Positions 5,743 to 36,459 of a DNA stretch of 64,000 bases are shown here, one piece after another. The position numbers and the translations under genes are program-made. The DNA comes from Candidatus Latescibacterota bacterium (lineage in GTDB: Bacteria; Latescibacterota; UBA2968; UBA8231). Each line of letters begins with the position of its first letter. Position 1 is the stretch's first letter. The DNA lies in contig OZ220089.1 in assembly GCA_964291625.2 (NCBI GenBank), forward strand, positions 2,368,001-2,432,000, given 5' to 3'. The notes under the pieces are model-generated. The model was not told the origin of the DNA. It searched no databases and saw only the letters and a program-made list of their open reading frames with translations.

Positions 5743-5841
5743 GAAATGAGACGGAAACGAGACGTGTGCATCCCTTGCATCTTGACATGAAAAACAATGA
5801 CTTAGGAATGGATGGATCCCGAATCGGGACGGAAATGAGCC
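5743..5841 (+). promoter_or_regulatory. Promoter/operator region of the fic gene with paired 10-bp direct repeats
   Basis: GAAATGAGAC 5743, GAAACGAGAC 5754, GAATCGGGAC 5821, GAAATGAGCC 5832; TTGACA at 5782-5787; IHF-like AAACAATGACTTA at 5792-5804. Confidence 0.45.
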
Positions 5842-5845
5842 GAAA

Positions 5846-7093: not shown

Positions 7094-7105
7094 GTGGCAG
7101 GGAGA

Positions 7106-7843
7106 CTACTCCCCCTCCAGCGCCTTCAGCTCCGCCACCGCCCGTTCGTGGACGAACCCGTCGTAGACATCTCGCGCCGGGATTTCGACCGCCTTCTCCA
7201 GCAGCTCCCTCGCCCGTTCCCTGCCCTTCCTGCCGGCGAGCTTCGGCAGCCTGAGCGCATAGTCGAACAGCACCACCTTCGACCCCGGCGCCAGCTCCAG
7301 GGCGCGCTCGAAGTGGGCGGCCGCCTCCTTCTTGGTCGCCCCGTACATGACCCGGGCCATCATGCGCCCGGCGCGGCTGACGATGTCGGCGTTCCAGCCG
7401 CCGAGGGCCAAGTGCGCCAGGGCGTGGTCGGGATCGCGGGCGAGGGTGGCCTCGAACATCTTGCGAGTCTTGCCCCCGAGGCCCTTCCGGAGCGCCGTCA
7501 TGGTGCCGATGCTCTGCGCGTAGCGGCCGAGGGCGTGGCCCGACTGGAAGTACCCCTCGGGGTTGGCCGTATCCGCGCGCACCGCCTCCTCCCCCAGCTG
7601 CAGGGCGCGCTCGAACAGCTCCTTCTTCTCTTCCTCGGGAGCCGCGTAGTGCCCGTACACGGCGAGCGATCGCGCCGCCAGTGCATAGCCTTCCGTGGTC
7701 CCGGCGGCCTCGGCGATACCGGCCGCTTCGACGAAGCGGCCCTCCGCGAAAGCAGTCCTTGCCCCATCGATCGACTGCGCGTGGGCACCTGCCGCGAGCA
7801 CGAGCCCGACCGCGGCGACGCGGGCGAATCGGGAGTGGTTCAT
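7106..7843 (-). CDS. Secreted TPR-like helical repeat protein
   Basis: Start MNHSRFARVAAVGLVLAAGAHA (signal peptide); TPR-like repeats (ALARDPDHALAHLALG, FERALELAPGS). Confidence 0.7.
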   Translation of the reverse strand: MNHSRFARVAAVGLVLAAGAHAQSIDGARTAFAEGRFVEAAGIAEAAGTTEGYALAARSLAVYGHYAAPEEEKKELFERALQLGEEAVRADTANPEGYFQSGHALGRYAQSIGTMTALRKGLGGKTRKMFEATLARDPDHALAHLALGGWNADIVSRAGRMMARVMYGATKKEAAAHFERALELAPGSKVVLFDYALRLPKLAGRKGRERARELLEKAVEIPARDVYDGFVHERAVAELKALEGE

Positions 7844-7958
7844 CAGTGTAGCCTCCGTGTTCGGGCTGTTGGACGCGACACTCGCATCGGGAATAGCGTT
7901 CTGCCGCAATCTATGCCGGAACGAAACCAGAGGATAGACGGTCAGGAGACCTTCACCG

Positions 7959-9203
7959 ATGTCTGACGCAACCAGGTCACTCCTCGCCTTCCTGCTCGCG
8001 GCGTTCCTGGCAGGATGCGGCGGGGACAAACCCCTCCGCTTCGAGGCCGGGCCTCTCGGCGCTGTCGAGGTCGGCCCGGCCGATGCGGTGCAAGTGCGCT
8101 CCATGCTGCCGCTCCCGGGCCTGCAGGACGTCTCCGAATCGATCCGGAAAGCGATCGAGCTGGCCATCGAGGACTTTGGCCCCATTCATGGCCGCACGGT
8201 GTCGCTCGGGCAGCCGGTGGATACCATGTGCTCGAGAGAAGGCGGCGAAGAGGGCGCGCGGCGCATCGTTGCCGACCCCCAGGTGGCCGGCGTCATCGGC
8301 CCGGCCTGCTCCGAGGCGTCGGTGGGTGCCTCCCCCGTGCTCAGCGCCGCCGGGCTGGTGACGATCTCCCCGGCAAGCGCCTCCCCCGGTCTCACGTCGG
8401 ATCTCGCCGGAAACCCCGGACCCGACTACCACCCCGGCTTCTACCGCGTGTACAGCAACGGCCTCTACCAGGCCCGGGCGGTCGCCCGGTTCGCCCACGG
8501 CGAGCTGGGCCTGCGGCGGATGGCGACCGTCCACGACGGCGACTCGTTCACCCACGGGCTCGCCACCTCCTTCGCCAACGCTTTCGCCGCGCTCGGCGGG
8601 GAAGTCGTCGCCATCGCCTCGGTCGGCAAGGGGGACACGGACATGAGTGCCGTGCTGGAGGATCTCGCCGATTCCGGGCCCGACGGCATCTTCCTGCCCC
8701 TCTTCGCGGCCGAGGCCGCTCACCTCGTCAGGCAGCTGAGGGAGCTCGTCGCCCTGAGAGGGGCCACCCTCATCGCCGGCTCGGCTGCGGGCACGTCGGA
8801 GTTCCTCGGGAGCCCGCCATCGGAAGGGGTCTACCTGTCCGGGCACGACTCGGACTTCGGCTCCAACGTCAACGAAGTGACCGGCAAGAACGCGGCCGCC
8901 CTCGCGGCCGCGTACGAGGCCGCGACGGACGCCAACTTCTTCTTCCACGCCTACGACGCCGCGACGCTGCTCCTCAAGGCCATCGAATCGACTGCGGTCG
9001 AGGAGGGTGGAGTGCTGCACATGGACCGCGCCGCCCTGCGCGAGGAGATCGGGGCTGCAGCGGGATTCCAGGGGATCATCGGCAAGCTCAGCTGCGACGA
9101 GTTCGGAGACTGCGGCACCGGAAGGGTGAACATCTACTTCCACGCGGACTCCAGCATCACCGACGTGGCGCAACTGCCGGTGGTCTACCGGTACGAGCCT
9201 TGA
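7959..9203 (+). CDS. Branched-chain amino-acid ABC transporter substrate-binding lipoprotein (LivJ/K-like)
   Basis: AGGAG RBS; lipobox LAGC; GVIGPACS, ISPASASPGLT and AYDAATLLLKAIE motifs. Confidence 0.88.
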   Translation: MSDATRSLLAFLLAAFLAGCGGDKPLRFEAGPLGAVEVGPADAVQVRSMLPLPGLQDVSESIRKAIELAIEDFGPIHGRTVSLGQPVDTMCSREGGEEGARRIVADPQVAGVIGPACSEASVGASPVLSAAGLVTISPASASPGLTSDLAGNPGPDYHPGFYRVYSNGLYQARAVARFAHGELGLRRMATVHDGDSFTHGLATSFANAFAALGGEVVAIASVGKGDTDMSAVLEDLADSGPDGIFLPLFAAEAAHLVRQLRELVALRGATLIAGSAAGTSEFLGSPPSEGVYLSGHDSDFGSNVNEVTGKNAAALAAAYEAATDANFFFHAYDAATLLLKAIESTAVEEGGVLHMDRAALREEIGAAAGFQGIIGKLSCDEFGDCGTGRVNIYFHADSSITDVAQLPVVYRYEP

Positions 9204-9216
9204 ACTGCGCCCCCCT

Positions 9217-10263
9217 TCAGCGGCCAGCCCTCTCGAAGGGGGACGGCTCCGGCAGCGTATCCAGGAGCACCTCCACCGGGGGCGTGAGCCACTCCGCCCG
9301 CGCGGCGGGGAGCACCGCCGTCAACCGGGCCCGGCCGTTGCGCACGTAGCGCTCCCCCGCGGCGGCGGCTCCCCCGACCTCCAGCACGTCGCGCACCCCC
9401 TCCTCGTCGGTCAGCTCCACCCTCGCGGCGCCGAAGCCGTATCCGGCGGAGGCCGCCGGGTCGACGAGGCGCTCCACCCGCACCTGCCGCAGGTAGGTGA
9501 GGTACTCCCAGACGCTGGCGTCGACGCAGTCCTCCTCCACCCCCGGCTCCCGCTCCAGCAGCCAGCGGTAACGCTCGCGCTCGCCCGCGGGCAGGGGCAG
9601 GGCCGGTGCATCTTCCGGCAGGGGGGCCAGCACCCGCCGCAGCCGGTAGGCCCCCTCCGGCGGCGCCGTCACCCGCACCTCGACCACGGGACCGCCGCGC
9701 TCGTCGCGGGGCAGCAGGTGGGGGTCGAGCATGGGGGGGCGGGCGGCGCCCACGGTGAGCAGGGGGTTGGCGTGCAGATGGAGGACGCTGTCCGAGCCGG
9801 CCCTGCGGACGTAGCTCTCGTCGCCGGACGGCCCCGGGACCCCCCTTCCGATCCAGATCTCCCCGAGGGACTCCCCGGCGTTGCCGGCCAGGGTCAGGCG
9901 CACGGCGCTCTGCTCGGAGAGCCCGAGGTCGTCGAAGTCGTCCTCGTCGGTGGTGACCAGCGTGCCGGCGGCGCCGAGCACCCCGTGGAGGAGCCGGTCC
10001 ACGCGCCCGGAGTGGGCGTAGGCGCCGAAGTAGGCGGGGAAGCGCCAGGTGCCGCCGCGGCGCTCGTAGACCCAGGGGGACGACCCCGGGACCTGCAGGG
10101 AGAGGGTGCGGACCCGGTCGGGCTCGACCTGCCCGGAGGCCGGCAGGATCGTCCGCAGGACCGCCGCCTCGGCGCGGCCGCTGTCCCGGGCCCGGCGCAG
10201 CCAGCCGTCCGCAGCGGCCAAGGCGGCCAGGACCGCGGCCAGCAGCAGCAGGTGGCGGATCAC
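9217..10263 (-). CDS. DUF4340-like membrane-anchored protein of the GldAFG-type operon
   Basis: GTG start at 10263 followed by a TM helix; DLGLSE...IWIGRG...SYVRRAG pattern; last gene of a GldA/F/G-like operon. Confidence 0.7.
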   Translation of the reverse strand: MIRHLLLLAAVLAALAAADGWLRRARDSGRAEAAVLRTILPASGQVEPDRVRTLSLQVPGSSPWVYERRGGTWRFPAYFGAYAHSGRVDRLLHGVLGAAGTLVTTDEDDFDDLGLSEQSAVRLTLAGNAGESLGEIWIGRGVPGPSGDESYVRRAGSDSVLHLHANPLLTVGAARPPMLDPHLLPRDERGGPVVEVRVTAPPEGAYRLRRVLAPLPEDAPALPLPAGERERYRWLLEREPGVEEDCVDASVWEYLTYLRQVRVERLVDPAASAGYGFGAARVELTDEEGVRDVLEVGGAAAAGERYVRNGRARLTAVLPAARAEWLTPPVEVLLDTLPEPSPFERAGR

Positions 10264-10762
10264 GGGCGCGGCCTCCCGGCCGCCGCGCCAGGGCCAGACC
10301 GCCAGGGCGAGGGGAGCGCCGGTCGAGGCCGCGGCCTCCGGACGGACGGACGCCGCCGCCAGAGCCCCGCCAGCGCGGGCAGAGCGCCGTTGAGCACGGC
10401 CGCCGCCCCCGGGGCGAGAGGGCGCCACCACCCCCTGAGCCCACCAGCGCGAGAGAGGCGCCGTTGAGCACGGCCACGCCCGCTGGACGCCCGCCACCTC
10501 CAGAGTCCCGCCAGCGCGAGCGAAGCGCCGTCGAGCACGCCACCGCCCCCGGCCGAGAGGGCGCCACCACCCCCAGAGCTCCACCTGCGCGAGCGAGGCG
10601 CCGTTGAGCACGGCCGCGCCCGCTGGAAGGGACGCCCGCCACCCCCCGGAACCCCCGGCGCGAGCGGAGCGCCGTCGATCATGGCCGCCGCCCCCGGTGC
10701 AAGGACCGCCGCCAGCGCCAGAGCCCCACCAGCGCGAGGGCCAGCGGAGCCCCGCCGATCAC
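10263..10762. repeat. Degenerate tandem array of about 65-80-bp units copying the last ~26 codons of the gldG-like gene
   Basis: Unit boundaries GAGCAC/GATCAY at 10392, 10466, 10533, 10606, 10677 and 10757, plus a degenerate one near 10325; shared core GCGCCGTYGAGCACG. Confidence 0.85.
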
Positions 10763-13700
10763 CGCCAGACGCCAGACGGCGCGGTCGCCCCCACCCTGCA
10801 CCGGGAAGCCCCTGGCCGGCGCGCGGGCGCGCCCCTGCAACTCCGCCATCCGCGGTCCGAGAGCGGCCATGGCGGCAGCGTTCAGCAGCAGTTGGTCGTG
10901 GGCGAAGCCGGCGCTGAAGAGGCGGTGGCTCTTGAACATCTCCGAGGAGCCGAGGAGCAGCATCCAGCCGTCCCGGGCCCCGTCGACGGGAACCACCTGC
11001 AGGCGGGTGCCGCCACCCTCGGTCTCCACCGCCTCCACCGCGGGAAAGCGGCCCTCCAGGGTCAGGGCGAGGCTCTGCCGGCCGGGCAGGTAGCCGCCGG
11101 TCTCGCGGAGATCCTCCTCCTTCAGGAAGCCGCCGTTCCAGTCGTAGGACCAGGCGCGGTCCGTGGTCGTGGCCAGGACCTGCGCCCGCAGGCCGGCCTC
11201 GCCCAGGGCGCTGGGGTCCAGGCGGAAACGGTTCCCCCAGATGAACAGCAGGTCGCCGAGCCGGCCCGTCACCGGCGAGGAGCTGGAGTGGTTGGCCCCG
11301 AGGGCGCGGATCAGAAAGGGCAGGGCCACGCGCTGCGGATCGTACTCGCGCACGGCGGTGCGGTTCACCTGCGTGGCCAGCTCCAGGTGGTGGCGGCTGC
11401 GGTCCATCAGCACCTCGCGCACCTGCTCGACGCCGAAGAGCTCCAGGTAGCGGTCGAAGTCCTGGAACTGTGGCTGCGGCCAGTGCACGGTGCCGAAGCC
11501 GGTGCCGCGGTACTGGCGCTGCTGGATGTTGAAGTGCTGCATGGCCACCACGGCGCGCCCGCCCCCGGCCAGGTGCCGGCTCAGCCAGGTCAGGACCGGC
11601 GTCGAGTCCCGCCGCGGCTGGAACCAGATCACGGCTCCCGGCCGCTCCGGGAAGACCGGCTCCCGCAGCGGCACGTGCCGCACCTCGTACCCGTACTGCC
11701 GCAGCAACTCCTTGGCGCGGGCGTAGACGTCCACCCCCTGGGGCGCGCTCAGGCCCTTCTTCTGGTAGTCCTCGTGGGCCTCGGCCGGCGACAGGCGCGG
11801 CAGGTCCGAGACCACCGTGACCACGGGGGCGCGGCCCTCGTCGAGCCGCTTCAGGGCCGCGGCGAGGAGGAAGTCCAGGTGGGTGCCGGTGTGCCGGTCG
11901 AGGCGGGGGATCGTCGTCGAACGGCTGTCCTGGCGCAGCACGAGCCCGCTGTGGATCTCGGTGGTCACGCTCGTGTCCCGCTGTACGCGCTCCACCTCGA
12001 AGGCGGGCACCCCGGCGGCGCGGCCCTCCACGGGATGGCGCACCTCCACCCCGACCCCGGCCCCGGAGAGGATCTCCCGGAGGCGGTCGGTCACGTCGCG
12101 CACCCCCGGGGGCAGCTGCGACCGCAGCGACAGCACCAGTTCGGCCTTCAGCCTCCCCACCCGGCTGCGCAGGTCCGAGACCACCGAGTCGTCCGGGGTG
12201 TGCACACCGGCGGCCGTCAGGTCCCAACTCAGGCCGGACAGGGGTCCGCGCAGCGCCAGGAAGACCACGGCCGCCGCTGCCACCGCCACTCCGGCCGCGA
12301 GGGCCGGCCCGCGAGCCCGGCGATGGCGGGACCCGCCGGGACGGATGGAGCCGCGCAAGCTCCGCACGGCCAGCCCCACCCATAGCAGGGGCACGAGCCC
12401 CGCCACCGCCAGACGCCAGCCCACGCGGGCCCCGCCCGACAACGGCGGCAGACCCGCCGGCAGTCCCCGGTCGACCCGCAGCCGCGCCAGCCGCTCCGGG
12501 TCGGCGAAGGTGCGCGCCAGGTCGCGGACGAAGACGGCGTGGCCGTACCCGGGTTGCTCGAGGATCTCGTCGCGGAAGAGGCTGGCCGAGGCCAGTACCA
12601 GCAGCTGCCCCGCCCACGGGTCTTCCGGGGTGAGCAGGACCATCAGGCTCTGCTTGGGCACCCGCAGGTCTTCGGTCAGGTCCTCCAGGCCGAACTCGCC
12701 CTCCGGCAGCGGGCGCACCCGGGCGTGCTCGGTGGTGGTGGCCGCCACGTGGGCCTGGTACCCGGCCGCCGCCACCCGGCGCGGGTCGACGCGCAGGGGG
12801 CTGGCGGCGGTGAAGCTCAGGCCGCCCCGGGCCGGGGTCCGGAAGGGGCGGAAGTCCCGGAAGGCGGGCAGGTTGCGCAGGTGGAAGGGCGCGTCCACCT
12901 CACGCTGCACCCCGCCAACGGAGACCGTGACCGGGCCCGAGTTGCGGTCCATCAACAGGTCGGCCACCGGCTCCAGGCCGAAGGGCTCCAGGAGCCGTTC
13001 CCAGGCGCTGCCCATCCCCTCGACGCGGAAGCGGACCTCGCCCTCCTCGCCGTCGGAGTAGCCGACGCGATAGGCGCTGCCCGCCAGGACGGCGGTGCGC
13101 CCAGAGGCGAGGAAGCGGCGCAACTCGGCGATGTGCTGCCGCGTCACCCGTCGCGGCTCCAGCCAGAACAGGACGTCCACGTCGCGGGGGATGAAGCCGC
13201 CGCCGTCGACGTCGATCTCGACGACGGGGCCGTGCTGGCTCAGGTAGCGGGGGAACTTCCCGTACCCCGGCGGCGCCGAGAGGGCGAAGGAGGCCTGCGG
13301 CGCCGACTCCCCCGCGGTCAGGCGCGCCGCCACCAGGCGGGCCAGGTACGGCAGGTGGGCGTTCTCGATCCCCTGTATGAGGACGTCCTCCCGCCGCGGC
13401 CTCCCCTCCCGGGAGAAGACCAGGGACGACCAGATCTCCGCCTGGCTCTCGGCGTCGTCGACGACCCGGCGCACGCGGATCGGACTCGCCCGGCGCGAGG
13501 CGGCGTAGCGGGCGCCCGCCGCCCCGGAGAGGCCGGGATCGATGACCCGGTAGCTGAAGCGCCCCCGGGCGGCGTCCTCCATCTCCTCGAGCAGGGCCCG
13601 GGCCGTCTCCTCCACGTCCCTGAGATGCGACGGCATGACGTCGCGCCCGCTGACGAAGAGGGTGGCCGCCAGCTCGCCGTCGAGGCCGCGCAGGAAGCGC

Positions 13701-13852
13701 CGCAACTCGGCGGGCACGGTGGCCGGATGGCGCCCCCCGAGATCGATGCGGACCGCCGACCCGGCGGCGCCCAGCAGCCGGCCGGCGTAGACCGTGACCC
13801 CCAGGAGGAGGACGGCACCGATCAGGGCCTGGAGCAGGAAGGTCCGCTTCAA
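10679..13852 (-). CDS. GldG-family ABC transporter auxiliary protein, internally duplicated (two modules)
   Basis: TTG start; two similar halves (ATTTEHA/ATTTDRA, PFHLRNL/PFLIRAL, LVLASASLF/LLLGSSEMF) separated by TM helices; DLT...HT motif; follows an ABC ATPase and permease. Confidence 0.8.
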   Translation of the reverse strand: MKRTFLLQALIGAVLLLGVTVYAGRLLGAAGSAVRIDLGGRHPATVPAELRRFLRGLDGELAATLFVSGRDVMPSHLRDVEETARALLEEMEDAARGRFSYRVIDPGLSGAAGARYAASRRASPIRVRRVVDDAESQAEIWSSLVFSREGRPRREDVLIQGIENAHLPYLARLVAARLTAGESAPQASFALSAPPGYGKFPRYLSQHGPVVEIDVDGGGFIPRDVDVLFWLEPRRVTRQHIAELRRFLASGRTAVLAGSAYRVGYSDGEEGEVRFRVEGMGSAWERLLEPFGLEPVADLLMDRNSGPVTVSVGGVQREVDAPFHLRNLPAFRDFRPFRTPARGGLSFTAASPLRVDPRRVAAAGYQAHVAATTTEHARVRPLPEGEFGLEDLTEDLRVPKQSLMVLLTPEDPWAGQLLVLASASLFRDEILEQPGYGHAVFVRDLARTFADPERLARLRVDRGLPAGLPPLSGGARVGWRLAVAGLVPLLWVGLAVRSLRGSIRPGGSRHRRARGPALAAGVAVAAAAVVFLALRGPLSGLSWDLTAAGVHTPDDSVVSDLRSRVGRLKAELVLSLRSQLPPGVRDVTDRLREILSGAGVGVEVRHPVEGRAAGVPAFEVERVQRDTSVTTEIHSGLVLRQDSRSTTIPRLDRHTGTHLDFLLAAALKRLDEGRAPVVTVVSDLPRLSPAEAHEDYQKKGLSAPQGVDVYARAKELLRQYGYEVRHVPLREPVFPERPGAVIWFQPRRDSTPVLTWLSRHLAGGGRAVVAMQHFNIQQRQYRGTGFGTVHWPQPQFQDFDRYLELFGVEQVREVLMDRSRHHLELATQVNRTAVREYDPQRVALPFLIRALGANHSSSSPVTGRLGDLLFIWGNRFRLDPSALGEAGLRAQVLATTTDRAWSYDWNGGFLKEEDLRETGGYLPGRQSLALTLEGRFPAVEAVETEGGGTRLQVVPVDGARDGWMLLLGSSEMFKSHRLFSAGFAHDQLLLNAAAMAALGPRMAELQGRARAPARGFPVQGGGDRAVWRLAVIGGAPLALALVGLWRWRRSLHRGRRP

Positions 13853-27121: not shown

Positions 27122-27944
27122 ACCGATGCTGTACGAAATGCACATGCACACCCCGCTCTGCAACCACGCCCGCGGCGAACCGGAGGAGTATGCCGAAGTG
27201 GCCCTGCAACGGGGCCTGAAGGGGATCGTGGTCACCGACCACAACCCCACGAACGACGGCTGGTCGCCGGAGGCGCGGATGGGCGTGGACGAACTCGACG
27301 ACTACGTGGCCATGGTCGAGCGCGCCCGCCAGGCCTGGGCCGGCCGGGTCGATGTCCGCCTTGGCATGGAGAGCGATTACGTGCCCGGCATGGAGCCCTG
27401 GCTGGAGAAGCTGCACGGCATGGCCGGATTCCACCACGTGCTCGGTTCGGTCCATCCCCAGCTCCCTCAATACCTCGACCGCTTCGACCGGGGGGATGTG
27501 GACGCCTTTCGCGGCACCTATTTCGAGCATCTGGCCCTGGCCGCCGAGACCGGCCTGTTCGACACCCTCGCCCATCCCGATCTGGTCAAGAATTCCTCGC
27601 CGTCGGACTGGTGCCCGGAGCGGGCCATGGACCATATCCTCCCCTGTCTCGACCGCATCGCCGCCACCGGCGTGGCCATGGAGCTGAACACCTCGGGCCG
27701 CAACAAGGCGTATGCCGAGATGAACCCGGGACCGGCCATGTTGGCGGAGATGGCGAGGCGCCGCATTCCGGTGGTCATCGGCGCGGACGCCCACGACCCC
27801 CGGCGGGTCGGCGACGGTCACGTCGACGCCCTCGGCATGCTCCAGGAGGCCGGATACAGCCATGTGAGCATGTTCCTCCACCGGCGGCGTCAGGACCTGC
27901 CCATCGACCGGGTGCGAGCCAGTCTGACCCCGGGGCCGCGTTAG
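27111..27944 (+). CDS. hisJ: Histidinol-phosphatase, HisJ/PHP family
   Basis: HMHTPLCNHA, TDH, LGSVH, AHPDLVK, ELNTSG and GADAH motifs. Confidence 0.82.
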   Translation: MSSEPMLYEMHMHTPLCNHARGEPEEYAEVALQRGLKGIVVTDHNPTNDGWSPEARMGVDELDDYVAMVERARQAWAGRVDVRLGMESDYVPGMEPWLEKLHGMAGFHHVLGSVHPQLPQYLDRFDRGDVDAFRGTYFEHLALAAETGLFDTLAHPDLVKNSSPSDWCPERAMDHILPCLDRIAATGVAMELNTSGRNKAYAEMNPGPAMLAEMARRRIPVVIGADAHDPRRVGDGHVDALGMLQEAGYSHVSMFLHRRRQDLPIDRVRASLTPGPR

Positions 27945-27976
27945 GACATGTTCAGGGCAGGGAGTATCGTTCCCCC

Positions 27977-28738
27977 ATGCGAGCACTGATCCTGGGAGCG
28001 GGCCGGGGCCGCCGCCTCAAGGCCCTCACCGACGAGCAGCCGAAGCCGTACGCCCCCATCGGCGGCCGGCGCATCCTCGACTGGCTGCTGCAGGCCCTGG
28101 GCGAAGCCGGCGTCAGCGACTTCGTCTTCATCGGCGGTTACCGCATCGACCAGGTCCGCGGCGACTACCCGCACCTGACCTTCTGCCACAACCCCGACTG
28201 GGAGAGCACCAACATCCTCGCCTCCCTCATGTGCGCCGAGGATCACATGGACGGCGGCTTCCTCGTCACCTACGCCGACATCCTCTACCGGTCCTCCGTC
28301 GTGGGCCGGGCCCTCGACCATCCCGGCGACGCCGTCCTCTGCGTCGACACCCGCTGGCGGGAGCGCTACGCCGACCGCAGCCAGCACCCCGAGGACGACG
28401 CCGAGAAGGTCCTCGCCGAGGGCGACCGCGTGCTGCGGATCAGCCGCGGGCTCCCCTCCTCCGAGGCCTGCGGCGAGTACATCGGCGTGGCCCGGTTCTC
28501 GGCCGCCGGCGCCGCCGCCCTGCGCCGCCACTACCACCGGGTGCGGGCCAGCTACAACGGGCAGGTCTGGAAGGACGGGACCACCTTCCGCCAGGCCTAC
28601 CTCATCCATCTCTACGAGGACATGCTCGAACAGGGAGAGAGGTTCCACATGGTGACCACCGGAGGCGAGTACGCCGAAGTCGACACCGAGGAGGACTACG
28701 CCCTCGCCAACGAGAGCTGGCCCCGGAGGTACTCCTGA
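27977..28738 (+). CDS. NTP transferase (phosphocholine cytidylyltransferase/LicC-like family)
   Basis: MRALILGAGRGRRL..LT..QPK, YADI, GEYIG and EVDTEED motifs. Confidence 0.82.
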   Translation: MRALILGAGRGRRLKALTDEQPKPYAPIGGRRILDWLLQALGEAGVSDFVFIGGYRIDQVRGDYPHLTFCHNPDWESTNILASLMCAEDHMDGGFLVTYADILYRSSVVGRALDHPGDAVLCVDTRWRERYADRSQHPEDDAEKVLAEGDRVLRISRGLPSSEACGEYIGVARFSAAGAAALRRHYHRVRASYNGQVWKDGTTFRQAYLIHLYEDMLEQGERFHMVTTGGEYAEVDTEEDYALANESWPRRYS

Positions 28739-29826
28739 TGCCCACCCTCGTCGAACGTCGCGGAAGCCTCTTCCCCACATCGGTCGTCGGCTCCCTGCCC
28801 AGGCCCGGGTACGTGCGCGAGATCGTCGTCGACGGACGCCGGGACGAAGGCTGGCAGCGGCGCCTCGACACCGCCGTGGCCCACGCCGTCTCGCTGCAGG
28901 AGGCGGCCGGCCTCGACGTCGTCTCCGACGGCGAGTGGAGGCGCGCTTCCTACATCGGGATCATCGCCGAGCTGGCCGACGGCTTCGAGGTGAGCCAGAC
29001 CGAGGACGGCCGCCCGTGGACGGTGGTCACCGGGGCGGTGGAGGTCCGGGACCAGGGAGTCGTGGCCGCCGAGGTCGAGCACCTGCGCTCGCTGACCGAC
29101 CGCCTGATCAAGGTGGCCTTGCCGTCGCCGGCCCTGCTGGCCGAGCGCATGTGGGACGAGGATCTGTCCATCGAAGCCTACGAGACGCCCCGCGCCTTCG
29201 CCGAGGCCGTGGCGCCGGTCCTGCGGCGCGAGGCCGAGCTGGTCGTCGAAGCCGGCGCCGACATCGTGCAGGTCGACGACCCCCACCTGTGCCTGCTCGT
29301 CGACCCCGAGGTCCGCGCCCACTACGACGACGAGGATTGGGACGCCGACGAGGAGGCCGCCTTCTCGGTGGACATGGACAACGAGGTCCTCGTGGGCATC
29401 GCCGGCGAGGCCGTGCGCGCCGTGCACCTCTGCCGCCGCGCCGGCGCCCGCGTCCGCGGCGAGGCCTACCACAGCGGCGACTACACCGCCATCGTCCCCG
29501 CCCTGGAGCAGCTCGACACCGACCACCTGACCCTGGAGTTCACCAACCCCGGCGCCGGCGCCGTGGAAGTCCTGGAGCAGTTACCCGATCACCTGGAGAT
29601 CGGCCTCGGCTGCGTCAGCGTCCACCCCGGCGAGATCGACGACGCCGCCCAGATCGTGGAGCGAGTGGAGCAGGCCGTGGAGGTGATCGGCGCCGAGCGC
29701 ATCGTCCTCAACCCCGACTGCGGCTTCGCGCCGGGGTCGGCGGCGCGGGTGGATCTGGATGAGGTTTATCGGAAGCTGCAGTACCAGGCGGAGGCGGCGC
29801 GGCGGTTGAGGGGGATCTACGGGTGA
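28738..29826 (+). CDS. Cobalamin-independent methionine synthase II (MetE C-terminal-like) family protein
   Basis: VVGSLPRP, DGEWRR, QVDDP, Zn ligands HLC..E..NPDCGF; TGATG overlap with the upstream gene. Confidence 0.85.
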   Translation: MPTLVERRGSLFPTSVVGSLPRPGYVREIVVDGRRDEGWQRRLDTAVAHAVSLQEAAGLDVVSDGEWRRASYIGIIAELADGFEVSQTEDGRPWTVVTGAVEVRDQGVVAAEVEHLRSLTDRLIKVALPSPALLAERMWDEDLSIEAYETPRAFAEAVAPVLRREAELVVEAGADIVQVDDPHLCLLVDPEVRAHYDDEDWDADEEAAFSVDMDNEVLVGIAGEAVRAVHLCRRAGARVRGEAYHSGDYTAIVPALEQLDTDHLTLEFTNPGAGAVEVLEQLPDHLEIGLGCVSVHPGEIDDAAQIVERVEQAVEVIGAERIVLNPDCGFAPGSAARVDLDEVYRKLQYQAEAARRLRGIYG

Positions 29827-29964
29827 GGGAAGGCTGGACGTACCATGGCCAGCGCGGATTGGTCGACGGCGATTTCGCGAATGGGGTCGTTCTACGACAA
29901 TCTCTCGCGGAATCTCAGGTCACTCTGCGGTAAACTCTCGCCAAATCCCAGGAGGTATGGGCGT

Positions 29965-30324
29965 ATGACCTGCGGCACCTGCAACGAGACCGTGAAGTCT
30001 GTGGGCACCATCCGGGTGGATCTGTCGACGGACCAGAAGATCTACTTCTCACCAAACGCTGAACACTCTGCTTCGGGCAACGGCAAGCACTACGCAGTGT
30101 TCCTTCCGGACGGCGGATGCACGAACGGGGTCGCAATCCCTTTCTGCGACCCGCTCCGAGGTCTTCCGATTAAGTTGGGATGCTCCCCTAAGCTGTCCGA
30201 CCTTGTCGCAGCCGCTGCGCAGCAGACAGCGGTCGAAGTCAAAGTCAAAGCCAAAGTCACCAAGAAGGCAGAGAACTTGACTTTGGAGAGCATCGTCATT
30301 CCTGGCCCCCGTACGAAGAGATGA
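29965..30324 (+). CDS. Hypothetical 119-aa protein, translationally coupled to the SIR2-like gene
   Basis: AGGAGG at 29950-29955, ATG 29965; stop overlaps the next start (ATGA 30321-30324); no motif recognised. Confidence 0.7.
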   Translation: MTCGTCNETVKSVGTIRVDLSTDQKIYFSPNAEHSASGNGKHYAVFLPDGGCTNGVAIPFCDPLRGLPIKLGCSPKLSDLVAAAAQQTAVEVKVKAKVTKKAENLTLESIVIPGPRTKR

Positions 30325-32003
30325 GATCCCGCTCCCCAACGGTCCTGTTCTGGGGGGCCGGTGCGACTGCATCCCTCGGGATTCACATGACGGAGCACCA
30401 AGGGCAATTCCTCCGTGCGCTCACACCCCTTCCTGAACGGTCGGAGAGACTCGAGGACCGAGTTCGCAGTGCCCTCGCGGAAGACATTTCGGACAAGTGG
30501 GTATCGGCGTTCTGCGACCTCCTCAAGATTCTCGGAGACAGCGAGGAGGGCACCGAGGACAGGCTCTCAGCTGCTGACGTCCGCACCGAGCAGATAGAGG
30601 CGATGAAGGACAACTGGGAATCCCAAGAGGATGAGGCGCTCCGCCAACGCATTGTCGAGCTGCGCGGCCTTTACGACTGGCCAGCGCTGGTGGCCGCCAT
30701 CAACGTGTGCCCAAGGGGCGTCCCCCGCGACGCCGGGGGCGAGCGGCATGAGCCCCAATTCAAGCTAGTTGACCTCTTCAACCTTCTGGACATGCACGAG
30801 CAGAGCGGTCATGGGTTCCCGGACCGACAGCAGAGGTTTCTCCCCCCGCAACGGGTCATCGGTGCCCGGGGGGCATTGGTACTGCTCATCCAAGCCCTGA
30901 TCTACGTTGACTGGCATTCCCGCGCCCGAGACTGCCCGGACCTTCAGCACCACTTGGCGTTCGGCCTCGAGCTCGGTCGCAAGGTGCAACGTGAAGGCCT
31001 GAGGTTCGACACGGAGGCTGGACCTGACGACTTCGAGCTGGACGACTTCATCCAGGGGGACGTGAGCGTCGTGAGCATGAACTGGGACCCGGTAGGGCTA
31101 TGGGCCCAATTCTTGGCGAATCGCTCCCTAAACCAAGCTTCCAATGTGCCGCACGTCGGTTGTCCGGCCTATAGGCTACAGCTCTACCACGATCTCGGCT
31201 ACTTCGTGGCGGGGCCCAGAGTTGACAAGGGGCACGCCGGAAACAGCGTCTGGCAACCCATGAACATCTCGTCCGCCAGGCAACTCAATGATCGCACCCA
31301 CGGAGCGAACCTGCGGATTCGCGTGAGCAAGTATCTCTTTCCGCACGGGTGCCTGTGGTGGCGCGAGTGCCCGAACTGCGGAAAGCTGTCATCCTACATT
31401 GGGGACAAGTGGGAGATGAGTTCGGAATCGCTGCTCCCCCCGCCCCCGCTCAGGGCCTTCGTGCAAGACCGGCACTTTGAGAGCTGGCTCGAAAATGACA
31501 AGGAGAGATGTAGATGGCACATGGGTGAAGTTGATGTCCGCGCTTGCGTCCATTGCAGGCACTTGACCTATGCGCACCACACACCCCTGATGATGCAAAC
31601 GAGCTTCAAAACCGCGCCACCGCCTTTCCTTGAGGAGATACAGCGCGAAATGCGTGTGGTAGTGCAGGAAGCAAAACACGTCGTTCTAGTCGGATACTCC
31701 CTGCCTCCCGACGACGTCACCTACCGCGCCTTCCTCGCTGCAAGAATCCGTAAGAGTTCCGAGCACGGAGAGGACGCGGTTCGGTGCAGCGTGATCGGCA
31801 AGGAAGTCGGCTACGAGAGCCGATGGCTCTATCCCGAAGAGCTCGATACCAAGGGCAGACTCCCTGATGCGGTGAAGCACGCACGTGAGGTTTTCCAGGC
31901 CAAGAACGTCAGATTTTTCGGTTCCGGGGTCCCTGATGTCTTCCTGGACGGCGCCGAAGGCGTCTCCCAAAGTGCTGTCGAGCGAGTGCTCACTTGGGAA
32001 TGA
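30321..32003 (+). CDS. SIR2-like (sirtuin/NADase-fold) protein with Zn-binding CxxC pairs
   Basis: FWGAGATAS, SMNWD, FPHGCLWW, CPNC...CVHC and VLVGYSLPPDD occur in canonical SIR2 order. Confidence 0.75.
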   Translation: MRSRSPTVLFWGAGATASLGIHMTEHQGQFLRALTPLPERSERLEDRVRSALAEDISDKWVSAFCDLLKILGDSEEGTEDRLSAADVRTEQIEAMKDNWESQEDEALRQRIVELRGLYDWPALVAAINVCPRGVPRDAGGERHEPQFKLVDLFNLLDMHEQSGHGFPDRQQRFLPPQRVIGARGALVLLIQALIYVDWHSRARDCPDLQHHLAFGLELGRKVQREGLRFDTEAGPDDFELDDFIQGDVSVVSMNWDPVGLWAQFLANRSLNQASNVPHVGCPAYRLQLYHDLGYFVAGPRVDKGHAGNSVWQPMNISSARQLNDRTHGANLRIRVSKYLFPHGCLWWRECPNCGKLSSYIGDKWEMSSESLLPPPPLRAFVQDRHFESWLENDKERCRWHMGEVDVRACVHCRHLTYAHHTPLMMQTSFKTAPPPFLEEIQREMRVVVQEAKHVVLVGYSLPPDDVTYRAFLAARIRKSSEHGEDAVRCSVIGKEVGYESRWLYPEELDTKGRLPDAVKHAREVFQAKNVRFFGSGVPDVFLDGAEGVSQSAVERVLTWE

Positions 32004-32250
32004 TGCTAAGGGCTTGGCGGATCGTGAAGATCCTCACCGTAGCTGAAGTGTCCCCGTCCGATAGAACTGGTCGCAACCCCGGTGCCGTTCGACGTGCGCC
32101 TATTATGGACGCGGTCCCCCCGTTGAACGAGTTGAGGATCCAGGTGCATCCTCGAGACCGGCTGCGAAAGCAGATGGAGGGGGTTGACCGCGGACCTGTC
32201 CGAAGACCGGGACGCAGTTCCGGGCGCGCTGCGCCAGCATGGTCCATGAC

Positions 32251-35079
32251 ATGACACCGGGCGACTTCATCGCCAAGTGGCGGGCCTCGGAGCTGAAGGA
32301 GCGCTCGGCTTCGCAGGAGCACTTCATCGACTTGTGCCGGCTCCTGGACGAGCCGACGCCGGCCGAGGCCGATCCGACCGGCGAAACCTACTGCTTCGAG
32401 AAGGGCGCCCGCAGGGAGACCGGCGGCGACGGCTGGGCGGACGTGTGGAAGCGGCACTGCTTCGCCTGGGAGTACAAGGGTCTGCGCGCCAACCTCGACG
32501 CCGCCTTCGACCAGCTCCGGCAGTACGCTCTCGCCCTTGAGAACCCGCCGCTCCTGATCGTCTCCGACATGCGGCGGTTCCGCATCCGCACCAACTGGAC
32601 CAACAGCGTCAGCGAGATCCACGACTTCGACATCGAGGACCTCGCCGATGCCTCCGTGCGCGACAAGCTCAAGTGGGCGGTCTCCGACCCCGAACGGCTG
32701 CGGCCCGGTGAAACCCGCCAAGCCCTCACCGAGCGCGCCGCCAAGGCCTTCGCTTCGCTGGCACAGTTTCTGCGCGAACGCGGCAACGATCCGCGGCCGG
32801 TGGCCCACTTCGTCAACCGCCTCGTGTTCTGCATGTTCGCCGAAGATGTGGGCCTGCTGCCGAACGACATGTTCACGCGGATGCTGCAGCAGGCGCGCGG
32901 TCGGCCGGACGAGTTCGCCAACATGGCCCGCGACCTGTTCGGGGCAATGTGCCAGGGCGGCCGGGTCGGCTTCGAGACCGTGGAGTGGTTCAACGGTGGC
33001 CTCTTCGACGACGACACCTCACTGTCCCTCGAGAAGCCCGAGATCGACATCGTGCTGGAGGCGGCGGACCTCGACTGGTCAGAGATCGATCCCTCGATCC
33101 TTGGGACCCTGTTCGAGCGCGGCCTCGACCCGGACAAGCGCTCCCAGCTCGGGGCGCACTATACCGACCGCGACAAGATCATGCGCATCGTTGAGCCCGT
33201 GGTCGTCCGTCCCCTCCTCGCCGAATGGCAGAAGGTGAAGGGAGAGATCGCAGCGGCTCTGGAGCGCGCCGACCAGGCCCGGTCGAGGGCGGCGGCCACA
33301 CGGCAGCGGGGACAGGCGAACCGGCTATTGCGCACCTTCCTCGAAGGTCTGCGGGGCTTCACGGTCCTCGACCCCGCCTGCGGCTCAGGCAACTTCCTCT
33401 ACCTGGCGCTGCAGTCGCTCAAGGACCTGGAGCACCGCGTGCAGCTGGAGGCGGACGCCATGGGCCTTCAGCGGGAGTTCCCAGGGGTCGGGCCCGCCAA
33501 CGTCCAGGGGATCGAGATCAACCCCTACGCCGCCGAGCTTGCCCGCGTGTCGGTGTGGGTCGGCGAGATCCAGTGGATGCGGCGCAACGGATTCGGCGAG
33601 CTGCGCGATCCGATCCTCAAGCCTCTCGACACCATCGAATGCCGGGACGCGATCCTGACGCCGGAGAACGGTGAGCCGGATTGGCCGCAGGCTGACGTGG
33701 TGATCGGTAACCCGCCCTTTCTCGGGGGGAAGCTCCTGAACGCCCACCTCGGGGAGGAGTACGTCTCGCGAATGTTCCAGGTGTATGAAGGCCGCGTGCC
33801 GGCCGAGGCCGATCTCGTCTGCTACTGGTTCGTGAAGGCCGGACAGCACCTCGCCGCCGGTCAGGCGAAGCGGGCCGGACTCGTCTCGACCAATTCCATT
33901 CGCGGAGGCGCCAACAGACGGGCTTTGCAGGCCGCCGTCGAGGGCCGGCCGATCTTCGATGCCTGGAGCGACGAACCGTGGGTGATCGATGGCGCGGCCG
34001 TACGGGTTTCCATGGTCTGCTTCTCGCGGCCGGAGGACGGATCGGTGTCGGAACGGCGGCTCGATGGCGAGCCCGTCGATGCGATCCATGCCGACCTGAC
34101 CGCGACCCGAGGAGACTCTGGCATCGATCTGACAGCTACGCGGCGCCTACCTCGGAACATGGGCGTCGCCTTCATGGGGGACACGAAGGGCGGACCCTTC
34201 GACGTCCCGGGTGCAGTCGCCCGCGAATGGCTACAGGAGCCCACCAACCCGAACGGACGACCCAACTCCGACGTCTTGGAACCATGGATGAACGGCAGGG
34301 ACGTGACCCGGCGTCCGGCGGACAAGTGGATCGTCGATTTCGGCTGCAGCATGGTGCGGGAAGAGGCTGCGCTCTACGAGGCGCCGTTCCAGCACGCCAT
34401 GGAGCACGTCTATCCGATGCGCCAGCGCAACCGCCGGGAAGCCTACCGCACCTATTGGTGGCGGCATGTCGAGCCGAGGCGTGGCATGTGGGATGCGCTC
34501 GACGGCCTAACGCGCTACATCGCCACACCTACGGTGGCTAAACACAGGCTGTTCACCTGGCTTGACGTGCGCGTCTGTCCTGACCACCAACTCATCGTCA
34601 TCGCCCGCGACGACGATACCACCTTCGGCATCCTCCACAGCCGCTTCCACGAGGCGTGGTCCCTTCGCCTCGGCACTTGGCTCGGCAAGGGAAACGACCC
34701 CCGATACACGCCCACCACCACCTTCGAGACCTTCCCCTTCCCCGAGGGGCTGTCGCCCGACGTTCCCGCCGCCGACTATGCGAACGATCCGCGCCCGGTC
34801 GCCATTGCTGAGGCATCCCGCCGGCTCGTCGAACTGCGGGACCGCTGGCTGAACCCGCCTGAATTGGTAGAATGGGTGGACGAGCCTGTGACAGGCTATC
34901 CCCCGCGGGCGGTACCGCGCAACGAAGAGGCGGAGAAGGAGCTGAAGAAGCGTACGCTGACCAACCTCTACAACACCCGCCCGCAGTGGCTCGTAGACAC
35001 ACACGCGGTACTCGATGCGGCCGTGGCCGAGGCCTACGGGGTGGGAGGTGGGAATCTCCGTAGACCGGGCACTGAATGA
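32251..35079 (+). CDS. MmeI-like Type IIG/IIL fused restriction endonuclease-N6A methyltransferase; frameshift near C-terminus (restored frame ends 35134)
   Basis: ADVW...WEYK nuclease motif, DPACGSGNFL (motif I), GNPPF (motif IV), TRD region; removing one G from GGGG 35038-35041 restores AYGW...ALNELLSMN. Confidence 0.88.
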   Translation: MTPGDFIAKWRASELKERSASQEHFIDLCRLLDEPTPAEADPTGETYCFEKGARRETGGDGWADVWKRHCFAWEYKGLRANLDAAFDQLRQYALALENPPLLIVSDMRRFRIRTNWTNSVSEIHDFDIEDLADASVRDKLKWAVSDPERLRPGETRQALTERAAKAFASLAQFLRERGNDPRPVAHFVNRLVFCMFAEDVGLLPNDMFTRMLQQARGRPDEFANMARDLFGAMCQGGRVGFETVEWFNGGLFDDDTSLSLEKPEIDIVLEAADLDWSEIDPSILGTLFERGLDPDKRSQLGAHYTDRDKIMRIVEPVVVRPLLAEWQKVKGEIAAALERADQARSRAAATRQRGQANRLLRTFLEGLRGFTVLDPACGSGNFLYLALQSLKDLEHRVQLEADAMGLQREFPGVGPANVQGIEINPYAAELARVSVWVGEIQWMRRNGFGELRDPILKPLDTIECRDAILTPENGEPDWPQADVVIGNPPFLGGKLLNAHLGEEYVSRMFQVYEGRVPAEADLVCYWFVKAGQHLAAGQAKRAGLVSTNSIRGGANRRALQAAVEGRPIFDAWSDEPWVIDGAAVRVSMVCFSRPEDGSVSERRLDGEPVDAIHADLTATRGDSGIDLTATRRLPRNMGVAFMGDTKGGPFDVPGAVAREWLQEPTNPNGRPNSDVLEPWMNGRDVTRRPADKWIVDFGCSMVREEAALYEAPFQHAMEHVYPMRQRNRREAYRTYWWRHVEPRRGMWDALDGLTRYIATPTVAKHRLFTWLDVRVCPDHQLIVIARDDDTTFGILHSRFHEAWSLRLGTWLGKGNDPRYTPTTTFETFPFPEGLSPDVPAADYANDPRPVAIAEASRRLVELRDRWLNPPELVEWVDEPVTGYPPRAVPRNEEAEKELKKRTLTNLYNTRPQWLVDTHAVLDAAVAEAYGVGGGNLRRPGTE

Positions 35080-35143
35080 ACTGCTGTCCATGAACTATGC
35101 CAGAGGGGAAGCGTCCTTCCCGGCATCTCACTGAAGGGAATGC

Positions 35144-36139
35144 ATGAAAGAGTCTGCGAAGTGTCCTATCTGTCAGAACAAAGATGGTGGCCAGTGCTTG
35201 CGTTACCCCGAGGACGGCACAGACGCCCTCAAGTTCAACTGCGCTACGTGTGGCCAGTACGCAATAGCCAGGACGGCATTCTGCGGCATGTTGAGTCAAG
35301 AGGCTGATGCGCTGACAGTAGTTCAGCGCGCGACTCTAAGTCATCTATTGCGAACGAAGCATGAGAACAACGAGCGCTTCATGGTAGACACCATCTGGCT
35401 TGGAAAATTCCTATCGAATTGTCGACTTCCCACCCCGCATGAACGAACTGCCAATCTGATCCGGTATGTCGGCGACCACGTTTCCCAAACCGGCGATAGC
35501 ATATCCGTTCCTCCAGATCATATCCATGCGATCATCGGGGCGCCGAACCGCGAGGCTGTCATTCGGCTGATGAAGGAGTTGGTCGAGCGTGGAACACTTA
35601 TCGCCGACCCACCTGGTACCGCCGTCCGTGTGGATCCGACTAATGGACCCCCTCTCCGCTTGTTTACCAACATCGATCTCAGTCTGGAAGGGTGGGAACG
35701 CTACGACGAAGAGAAACGTGGGAAGTTCCAAGGAAGCTATGGATTCATGGCCATGAAGTTTGGAGATCCCGATCTCGATCCTTTCGTAAGGGACGTTGTG
35801 AAACCTGCTCTGAGTGATGACCTCGGCTACGATCTTGTGGATATGCGCGATGTATCTCGTGCCGGGGTAGTCGACGACATCATGCGGACCCAGATTCGGG
35901 ATGCAGCCTTTGTCATTGCCGATCTAACACACGATAACCCTGGCGCTTACTGGGAAGCCGGCTATGCAGAGGGTTTGGGAAAGCCCGTCATTTATATTTG
36001 CGAGAAGGAGAAGTTCAAAGAAGAGAGCACTCACTTTGATACGAACCATTGCATGACTGTCCCTTGGTGCCAAGATGATCCCGGTGACTTCCGCGAGAAG
36101 CTGATCGCGACCCTTCGCCGGTCGCTTGAGCCGGTCTGA
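35144..36139 (+). CDS. Zn-ribbon plus helical linker plus nucleoside 2-deoxyribosyltransferase-like (NDT/TIR-like) domain protein
   Basis: CPIC...CATCGQY; C-terminal FMAMKF...IADLTHDNPGAYWEAGYAEGLGKPVIY...HFD; AT-rich. Confidence 0.72.
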   Translation: MKESAKCPICQNKDGGQCLRYPEDGTDALKFNCATCGQYAIARTAFCGMLSQEADALTVVQRATLSHLLRTKHENNERFMVDTIWLGKFLSNCRLPTPHERTANLIRYVGDHVSQTGDSISVPPDHIHAIIGAPNREAVIRLMKELVERGTLIADPPGTAVRVDPTNGPPLRLFTNIDLSLEGWERYDEEKRGKFQGSYGFMAMKFGDPDLDPFVRDVVKPALSDDLGYDLVDMRDVSRAGVVDDIMRTQIRDAAFVIADLTHDNPGAYWEAGYAEGLGKPVIYICEKEKFKEESTHFDTNHCMTVPWCQDDPGDFREKLIATLRRSLEPV

Positions 36140-36168
36140 ATCGGCTACATCCCGGGTTGCACTCCGCA

Positions 36169-36459
36169 TCAGCTCGCTGGCCACACCCGCTCAACCTCAG
36201 TTTCCTCAGCATGCTTCATCGCCTGCGCCAAGTCGTAGGCAGCCTGGAGCCGCAGCCACGTTCCGGCTCCACCCCCAAAGGCCTTGTCGAGCCGGATCGC
36301 CATCTCGGGCGAGATGCCCGCCCTGCAGTTCACGATGTCGGAAAGCCGCTTGCGGCTGACCCCCAGGTGCCTGGCCGCTTCCGTGACGTTCAGCCCCAAA
36401 GGCTCCAGGCAATCGTTCCGCACCGAAAGCCCTGGATGGGGCGGGTTCTTCATCGGCAT
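36169..36459 (-). CDS. higA: HigA-family antitoxin
   Basis: MKNPPHPG...[18 protein letters not shown]...ISPEMAIRL...[10 protein letters not shown]. Confidence 0.92.

Follow-up and report, generated by a model that had tools for sequence, protein, structure and literature searches.

What is the function of two overlapping genes that lie between a MetE-like gene and a restriction enzyme, and that no model in the usual family libraries recognises? The question is raised by a stretch of 64,000 nucleotides from Candidatus Latescibacterota bacterium (GenBank assembly GCA_964291625.2, contig OZ220089.1, positions 2,368,001 to 2,432,000 of the forward strand), which is called the window below. Its forward strand carries a gene for a protein of 119 amino acids (29965..30324) followed by a gene for a protein of 560 amino acids (30321..32003). 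An earlier note, made from the sequence alone, had proposed that the two form a new anti-phage pair with a SIR2-like enzyme. Our analysis suggests that the pair is probably an undescribed anti-phage system and should be treated as a candidate for one. The reading that we consider fairly probable is a mobile two-gene abortive-infection module, in which a SIR2 effector consuming nicotinamide adenine dinucleotide (NAD+) is gated by a fast-evolving subunit that resembles an oligonucleotide/oligosaccharide-binding (OB) fold.

The two genes form one unit

Are the two genes really a pair? In the window, the small gene is preceded by a Shine-Dalgarno-like AGGAGG at 29950..29955, on the same forward strand and 9 nt before its ATG at 29965, which is the strong ribosome-binding site of the earlier note. 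The product of the small gene contains cysteine, as that note had seen (five residues), and the stop of the gene overlaps the start of the large gene in an ATGA at 30321..30324 (forward strand), an arrangement for translational coupling. A scan of genome contigs gave 30 homologous loci in 28 records, all of them metagenome-assembled genomes, from Pseudomonadota (Gamma- and Alphaproteobacteria), Acidobacteriota, Chloroflexota, Latescibacterota and Spirochaetia. In nearly all of the 30 loci a short open reading frame (ORF) ends at the start of the SIR2 gene. A hidden Markov model (HMM) of the small protein was then built from 16 seed ORFs (15 loci and the window) chosen by simple motifs, and was run over the complete set of 6204 six-frame ORFs from the window and the 30 loci. 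It matches 27 of the 30 loci at E<=3.2e-12, 12 of them loci that gave no seed. Every match lies upstream of the SIR2 gene on the same strand, and none is found elsewhere among the 6204 ORFs. The earlier note had made its proposal depend on the small ORF being conserved beside SIR2 homologues, and conserved it is. As for the other three loci, L025 keeps a remnant of 35 codons (E 0.034), L022 has a divergent ORF of 144 amino acids at the position of the small gene without a match to the HMM, and L024 has nothing recognisable as a small gene.

The overlap of stop and start is conserved as well. It is present in 25 of 26 adjacent pairs, as a 4-nt NTGA in 22 and as a 1-nt overlap in 3. The one pair without overlap (L011) has no in-frame start there, perhaps the result of an indel. 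In two loci (L017 and L027) insertions put the small gene about 3 kb upstream. In the latter, an ORF of 490 amino acids at 4485-5957 of the locus, transposase-like by eye, splits the SIR2 gene; in the former, about 3 kb of inserted DNA (~3047-5900) interrupts the small gene and leaves a C-terminal remnant detached from its body. When five whole genomes were searched with the small-protein profile, all 7 matches were located at SIR2 loci, and three separate pairs are present in one genome (G168). Paralogous pairs whose small subunits have diverged agree with the idea of a diversified specificity. A record of a Pseudomonadales genome (OZ220737.1) has three SIR2 and small-protein pairs (L011, L013 and L028); between the first two the identity is 61% for SIR2 and 31% for the small protein, and the SIR2 of the third is split into pieces of 411 and 211 amino acids.

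Does any other gene belong to the unit? All-against-all clustering of the flanking ORFs from the 30 loci and the window found no third gene family common across loci. The TIR, HerA, Ago and STAND partners of known SIR2 systems, which the earlier note had reported as missing, are thus not conserved there either. Where other neighbours are shared, the loci are closely related, as with L014, L015 and L016. The two proteins also diverge together. For 24 intact pairs the distances of SIR2 and small protein are correlated (Mantel r 0.61), a value reached by 0 of 2000 permutations; L028 and L029, whose SIR2 genes are broken or cut by a contig end, are left out of this count. The mean identity is 0.55 for SIR2 and 0.29 for the small protein, the small protein being the lower in 275 of 276 comparisons, and it diverges about twice as fast as SIR2. 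The two genes are one unit.

The large protein is predicted to have a SIR2 fold

To which family does the large protein belong? Its sequence contains G12-A-G-A-T16, M253-N-W-D256, H342-G343 and G458-Y-S460, together with two CxxC pairs, CPNC (C350-C353) and CVHC (C409-C412). We aligned 26 homologues (alignment A1, identity 51-80%), and G12, G14, T16, N254, D256, H342, G343, C350, C353, C409, C412, G458, Y459 and S460 are invariant in the 26 sequences. Thus the ordered SIR2 motifs and the cysteine pairs that had been noticed in one sequence hold for the family. The order is that of the invariant G-G-S, TTN-D, HG and G-S-D in 13 genuine SIR2_2 domains gathered from related genomes for comparison. 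A word-indexed search finds 690 homologues at E<=1e-3, and an exhaustive search gives 304 cluster representatives, of which 115 reach E<=1e-30. Nearly all homologues are without a name, and those few that have one are labelled 'hypothetical protein'. Because of the 690 homologues, the 304 cluster representatives and the small ORF conserved alongside, the feature is more than chance.

The AlphaFold2 (AF2) model of the large protein, built on the alignment of 26 sequences, has a predicted template modelling score (pTM) of 0.80. Its SIR2 core is interrupted after the GAG loop by a helical insert of about 230 residues, between the strand at residues 7-11 and the strand at residues 248-252 (roughly residues 20-245), and the long insert that the earlier note had seen at this place thus appears in the model. 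When the model was compared with known structures by VIA-align, the best 21 matches were all SIR2 proteins (Z 14.3 to 7.4), the first other fold having Z 6.7. The best is PsSIR2 of SIR2-HerA (8w9l_A, Z 14.3, root-mean-square deviation 4.1, 299 of 360 residues aligned), followed by Nezha Sir2 (8j4u_A, Z 11.4), Af1 Sir2 (1ici_A, Z 11.4) and 3u31_A (Z 11.0), and with lower scores by KomBC (9v0g_E, Z 10.6), Avs5 (9jap_A, Z 10.1), SirTM (5a3a_A, Z 9.5) and ThsA (7uxt_A, Z 9.4). In these alignments the SIR2 fold spans residues 2-552. Foldseek gave nine matches at E<=1e-3, all of them chains of entries of the SIR2-HerA system (8sub, 8uae, 8suw, 8yhx); seven come from E. coli SIR2-HerA complexes and two from 8yhx, which is titled 'trimeric HerA', and the best is 8sub with E 2.3e-4. 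The nearest ESM Atlas clusters are one called 'SIR2-like domain-containing' (0.97) and another with SIR2_2 on 39% of its members (0.94). By its predicted fold, then, the large protein is a divergent SIR2-fold protein with an intact GxGxT, NxD, HG and GYS set. A database protein of 824 amino acids (P0270) combines the C-terminal third of the family with a long stretch of apparent repeats, which may be ankyrin-like as judged by eye; either the gene call is chimeric, or a remnant has become fused to a repeat protein.

A predicted SIR2 fold does not by itself tell the chemistry. The four cysteines are predicted to form a Cys4 zinc ribbon. In canonical sirtuins, too, a Cys4 zinc module directly follows the catalytic histidine, and the sirtuins built in this way act as deacylases rather than as NADases. 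Might the enzyme be a protein-modifying sirtuin, either a deacylase or an ADP-ribosyltransferase as in SirTM operons, with the small barrel as its substrate, carrier or recruiter, and serve regulation or stress rather than immunity? The structural scores would allow it, as deacylases score nearly as well as the defence SIR2s (11.4 for 1ici_A, 11.0 for 3u31_A, and 9.5 for SirTM 5a3a_A), and a dedicated small operon partner recalls SirTM with GcvH-L. However, no macrodomain, lipoate ligase or other gene of the SirTM operon is conserved near the pair. We regard this alternative as distinctly unlikely, and two further observations that speak against it, from the small protein and from the chromosomal site, are given below.

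The small protein may be an OB-like barrel

The small protein came to light as a family only through the loci of the large-protein homologues. A word-indexed search with it returns three entries, one of which is the query itself, and it has no match in Pfam, PADLOC or NCBIfam. The partners range from 105 to 214 amino acids in length. In an alignment of 28 members (A2) only G14, F28, F46 and P113 are invariant. Conserved blocks resembling strands are S-x-G-T-I near the N-terminus, F-x-P-x-x-x-H-S, Y-A-V-F and V-E-V-x-V, and the C-terminal tail reads I-T-I-P-A-P with a basic end, while the middle is hypervariable and often rich in cysteine. No polar residue (Lys, Arg, Asp, Glu, Cys or Ser) is invariant in this alignment. 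The lack of a conserved acceptor residue is evidence against the small protein being the substrate of a modifying sirtuin. We also considered whether the small cysteine-containing ORF could be a metal carrier or the precursor of a ribosomally synthesised and post-translationally modified peptide. Both ideas were rejected, since the family has no conserved Cys, His or Met.

What is the fold of the small protein? The AF2 model, with a predicted local distance difference test (pLDDT) of 86 and a pTM of 0.76, has eight strands and one helix, so the earlier impression of a beta-rich protein is borne out. The best structural match is the metal-binding OB protein SilF (8bwv_B, Z 7.4, root-mean-square deviation 2.8, 79 residues aligned). 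It is followed at Z 5-6 by subunits of the pertussis toxin S4/S5-like kind (AB5 B), the single-stranded DNA-binding protein SSB, PriB, MCM-OB and RPA. In the viral models of BFVD, phage SSBs are met only at E 6e-3 to 6e-2, and the ESM Atlas gives scores of at most 0.87, which is a lead only. The small protein might therefore be assigned, with weak confidence and on its predicted structure, to an OB-fold-like barrel of a new family.

Since many of these OB neighbours bind single-stranded DNA (SSB, PriB, RPA and MCM-OB, and the phage SSBs of BFVD), one may ask whether the small protein binds nucleic acid, so that it senses or presents phage single-stranded DNA or RNA while the SIR2 enzyme ADP-ribosylates the nucleic acid or proteins bound to it, with no depletion of NAD+. 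The matches are all weak (Z<=7.4), however, and none reaches E<=1e-3 in a Foldseek search of PDB or BFVD; the best of them is a metal-binding OB protein and not an SSB. In addition, there are no conserved aromatic or basic surface residues in the family beyond the two phenylalanines, which may be core residues. This reading seems to us very unlikely.

The pair is a cassette in a variable chromosomal site

How did the pair come to its present place? The locus was compared among 30 related genomes and then aligned directly. In G007, a genome of the same genus, 25 bp join the MetE-like gene to the homologue of the downstream MmeI-type gene, and the pair of about 2.4 kb is absent. In blastn, positions 27926-29827 of the window correspond to 1144-3045 of that locus and positions 32249-34562 to 3071-5384, which places the two-gene cassette at 29828..32248 (forward strand) of the window. 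At the junction a convincing target-site duplication is lacking; all that recurs is a 5-bp CATGG close to each end. The cassette opens a larger variable stretch downstream of the MetE-like gene (29828..36163), which forms the context of the pair and does not belong to the system itself. In G002, G006 and G007, homology to the window ends at 29827-29836 and resumes at 36164-36187. In G006 the equivalent of 29836 to 36168 is swapped for 12.8 kb encoding Druantia, with PADLOC matches to DruE (E 0), DruF (3.5e-200), DruM (1.1e-124) and DruK (1e-26). In G002 the same stretch is swapped for 8 kb that encode a PLD-like protein of 864 amino acids and unknown proteins. In the window itself the gene next to the pair encodes an MmeI-type type IIG restriction-modification enzyme (32239-35079; Pfam, and PADLOC REase_MTase_IIG with E 2.6e-297), the restriction-modification enzyme of the earlier note's island. 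It is followed on the forward strand by a TIR-like gene, an ORF of 331 amino acids (35144-36139; PADLOC Effector TIR, E 2.4e-10).

The base composition agrees with what had been said of the pair, that it is richer in AT than its surroundings. The GC content is 0.615 and 0.591 over 30001-32000 versus 0.68-0.71 in the 3 kb upstream, and it is 0.55-0.67 over the hotspot (29828-36163) with a backbone of about 0.70 in the window. Given the indel in G007, Druantia in G006, and the restriction-modification and TIR-like genes in the window, the pair is a self-contained cassette in a defence-gene hotspot. Such a site, a clean cassette indel and the absence of the family from the other genomes of the genus (0 of 9) are not expected for a regulatory enzyme of the sirtuin kind.

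What lies around the pair in other bacteria? We took two ORFs from either flank of each of the 30 loci, as far as the contig reached, which made 118 in total. Among them, Pfam matches include Eco57I (3), N6_Mtase (2), a Bpu10I endonuclease (1), a C5 methylase (1), AbiEii (2), Dynamin_N/LeoA-like (3), Peptidase_M78 (2), integrase (2) and IS66 (1), and PADLOC matches include mad2 (4), type II methylases (3), type IIG enzymes (2), IetA (2), capP (2), LeoA/BC (2) and RmrA (2).

Some further observations concern the contents of this site. The Druantia of G006 (L036, G006:C6:1928000-1942500, about 1580-13720) looks complete, with DruM, DruK, DruE (1895 amino acids) and DruF. In G002 (L035, G002:C20:81500-91000, 1604-8279), the 864-residue PLD-like protein matches PADLOC ZacB (3.1e-11) and DrmC (4.6e-6), and it is accompanied by ORFs of 554, 148, 199 and 384 amino acids that have no Pfam match, those of 554 and 384 amino acids having no PADLOC match as well; this segment might encode a further system that is not yet catalogued. 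The MmeI-type gene of G007 (L037, 3073-5502) is frameshifted into at least two frames (328 and 438 amino acids), with fragments rearranged downstream, and looks like a decaying restriction gene. The TIR-like ORF of the window matches Effector TIR over residues 211-311, and its N-terminal two thirds have no assignment. It has a sub-threshold Pfam match to Nuc_deoxyrib_tr and lies in the lowest-GC kilobase (0.549). In blastn it finds no match in the hotspot segments of G002, G006 and G007, and it may be a separate single-gene defence candidate.

The pair is patchily distributed and often decays

Has the pair been inherited vertically within the phylum? The family matches 5 of the 168 genomes of the phylum, including that of the window, and two of the five are remnants of 75-107 amino acids. 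A similar rarity is seen in the sampled phylum of G170, where the centre itself is the one genome out of 401 with a match. In a quick maximum-likelihood tree built from 24 SIR2 proteins, the phyla are interleaved. A copy from Chloroflexota is sister to a copy from Pseudomonadales (support 100), and two Latescibacterota copies fall in the two main clades, while the SIR2 protein of the window falls together with a Latescibacterota copy to which it is 79% identical. Note that bins can be chimeric, so the interleaved tree gives a hint of transfer and no proof. With this reservation, the sequences suggest that the pair was transferred between distant bacteria of at least five phyla. Broken copies are frequent (L017, L025, L027 and L028, with remnants in G098 and G142), and such decay is the turnover expected of accessory conflict genes.

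Is it then simply an addiction module? The pair could be of the toxin-antitoxin kind, with SIR2 as a toxin that arrests growth and the small protein as a labile antitoxin, so that it stabilises mobile DNA without dedicated phage sensing. The arrangement of a small gene before a larger enzyme gene, the overlap in 25 of 26 pairs, the strict 1:1 pairing and the co-divergence of the proteins would all suit such a module, and so would the patchy, mobile spread with frequent decay (the copy split by an insertion sequence in L027, the broken copies in L017 and L028, the remnants in G098 and G142). However, no DNA-binding or autoregulatory domain can be recognised in the small protein, the cassette is not found on the searched plasmids or phages, where addiction modules are common, and its chromosomal locus otherwise holds dedicated defence systems. 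We consider it unlikely that addiction is the whole explanation. Since many toxin-antitoxin pairs also act in defence, this alternative overlaps the reading of the pair as an abortive-infection module and does not exclude it.

Proposed mechanism and points against it

If the pair is an abortive-infection module, how might it work? The SIR2 enzyme would use NAD+, most likely as an NADase. The small barrel would be made in a fixed ratio to the enzyme through translational coupling and would stay bound to it, with the conserved core strands and the C-terminal I-P-A-P tail holding the enzyme. The hypervariable, often cysteine-rich middle loops might meet a trigger derived from the phage, or be displaced by it. 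Freed by the trigger, the SIR2 activity would lower NAD+, so that the infected cell would no longer sustain the growth of the phage. A bolder version is possible, though rather doubtful: the pair may be a new minimal sensor-effector complex, in which a barrel of about 120 amino acids directly recognises a phage component and gates a zinc-ribbon SIR2 that current domain and defence models do not detect, exchanged between at least five phyla and almost only among uncultured lineages.

Several results weigh against the proposed module, and they concern first the identity of the enzyme. The large protein has no match in the Pfam, PADLOC or NCBIfam models, and neither SIR2 (PF02146) nor SIR2_2 (PF13289) of Pfam matches any of the 26 family members even at E<=1. 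What Pfam finds in the 26 are weak matches to Zn_ribbon_3 in 10, the best with E 0.042, and the sole match of either protein of the window to the three family libraries is a sub-threshold PAS_4 (E 0.14). Searches of the PDB sequences by phmmer and with a profile gave chance matches only (E>=0.2). In hhalign, alignment A1 meets the SIR2_2 alignment over 29 columns at the GAG loop only, with a probability of 2.6% and E 0.017, the low probability being probably due to the large inserts. As no sequence model ties the large protein to SIR2, the assignment rests on the predicted fold together with the motif order, and the model is of moderate confidence (pLDDT 75), with residues 275-313 and 421-436 below pLDDT 50. 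The zinc ribbon shared with deacylases belongs here as well. For the small protein, the structural neighbours are nearly all OB folds, and the weakness of these matches noted above bears on this assignment too.

The second group of results concerns the complex. Predicted together, the two proteins reach an interaction prediction score from aligned errors (ipSAE) of 0.59 (0.66, 0.51 and 0.59 in the runs), the best control giving 0.00, and this was rated as 'weak support'. The runs share at least 84% of their contacts, and the pLDDT of the partner is at least 72. Among the reference cases, 58 of 80 solved complexes pass the mark, compared with 2 of 110 mismatched pairs, yet the bracket at or below 0.60 holds only 7 of the 80 solved complexes and both of the mismatched pairs that pass. 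Physical binding of the small protein to the enzyme may thus be proposed with caution. No fusion of OB and SIR2 was seen among the seven longest representatives of the large protein, and a search for longer forms of the small protein found none, which is weak evidence.

The third group concerns mobility and defence. Searches of phage (50,697 records) and plasmid (72,556 records) collections and of IMG/VR yielded no copy. Housekeeping genes are also common in the surveyed flanks, namely UbiD (2), FGE-sulfatase (3), glycosyltransferases (2), an amidase and CPSase. The pair is associated with a defence hotspot in this genus, and this is an association and not a statistical enrichment, there being no background set.

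In spite of these points, what the earlier note observed in the sequence is confirmed, and its interpretation is supported in the computational tests that it had called for. What would follow if the abortive-infection reading is right? SIR2 effectors that deplete NAD+ recur in bacterial immunity, and each known system has a different sensor. The pair would add to SIR2 immunity a very small new sensor or regulator, the OB-like barrel, as well as a SIR2 lineage in which the zinc ribbon of sirtuins is retained. Since Pfam, PADLOC and NCBIfam do not see this lineage, defence annotation would miss it in its carrier genomes, most of which are uncultured. With two small genes, invariant catalytic residues and hypervariable partner loops, the pair would also offer a compact case for the off/on control of SIR2.

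Other features of the window and its genome

A scan for DNA signals gave no site resembling a promoter, and its single terminator-like site compares with 1.9 expected by chance. Further dips in GC content are seen at 4001-5000 (0.565) and at 58001-60000 (0.627 and 0.600), versus a backbone of about 0.70-0.74, and they may be other acquired segments. Elsewhere in the same genome (L052, G000:C1:3949542-3949913 and around), a frame of 1276 amino acids has an N-terminal SIR2_2 domain (E 5.5e-20), and its protein resembles the DSR-type single-protein defence sirtuins.

Comparison with known systems

Has the pair been described under another name? It matches no named system among those tested; PADLOC, Pfam and NCBIfam name neither protein, in line with the earlier note, and the fold searches point to SIR2 for the large protein and to an OB-like barrel for the small one. 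A full-text literature search found no system of SIR2 plus OB or of SIR2 plus a small protein, within the texts it covered; such a system may be listed in supplementary tables, for example Table S2 of PMC13069673.

The enzyme shares the SIR2-fold effector with several defence systems and differs from each in the partner. In Thoeris, ThsA (SIR2-SLOG) works with the TIR protein ThsB, whereas the enzyme here has no SLOG or other Pfam domain and no TIR gene is conserved at the 30 loci. The TIR-like gene of the window is separated from the pair by the restriction-modification gene and has no counterpart among the families shared by at least 3 of the 30 loci. SPARSA combines SIR2-APAZ with a short pAgo, Avs5 joins SIR2 to STAND, and Kongming has KomBC; here no pAgo or APAZ, no STAND NTPase, and no KomA or KomB is fused to the enzyme or conserved nearby. 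DSR1 and DSR2, with the SIR2_2 (PF13289) sirtuins, show the same motif order (GxGxS/T, NxD, HG, GxSxxD), and depletion of NAD+ is presumed for both. A DSR, however, is a single large protein of about 1000 amino acids or more with an N-terminal SIR2 and C-terminal sensor repeats, while the enzyme here has 560 amino acids, no sensor extension, a separate small partner and no PADLOC match to DSR.

Outside defence, the canonical sirtuins (CobB, Sir2Tm and Af1 Sir2; PF02146) have the same Rossmann core, the Cys4 module after the catalytic histidine and fold scores of Z 9-11.4. Unlike them, the gene here has no PF02146 match, is accessory and apparently horizontally moved, and lies in a defence hotspot with a private partner. 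The SirTM operon (sirtuin, macrodomain, GcvH-L and LplA2) differs in its linked genes, which the pair lacks, along with any conserved acceptor residue.

The closest relation, as far as the predicted structure goes, is to the SIR2 of SIR2-HerA. SIR2-HerA is a two-gene system in which SIR2 is reported to be the NAD+-consuming effector (PMC11472057, PMC11514289). The Nezha and related structures (8w9l, 8j4u and 8sub) include the best structural match of the large protein, and the pair likewise consists of two genes. It differs in that no HerA ATPase or other conserved partner stands beside it, and neither Sir2 nor HerA of PADLOC is matched. In place of HerA the partner is predicted to be an OB-like barrel, and the enzyme differs from that of SIR2-HerA in its Cys4 zinc ribbon and its helical insert.

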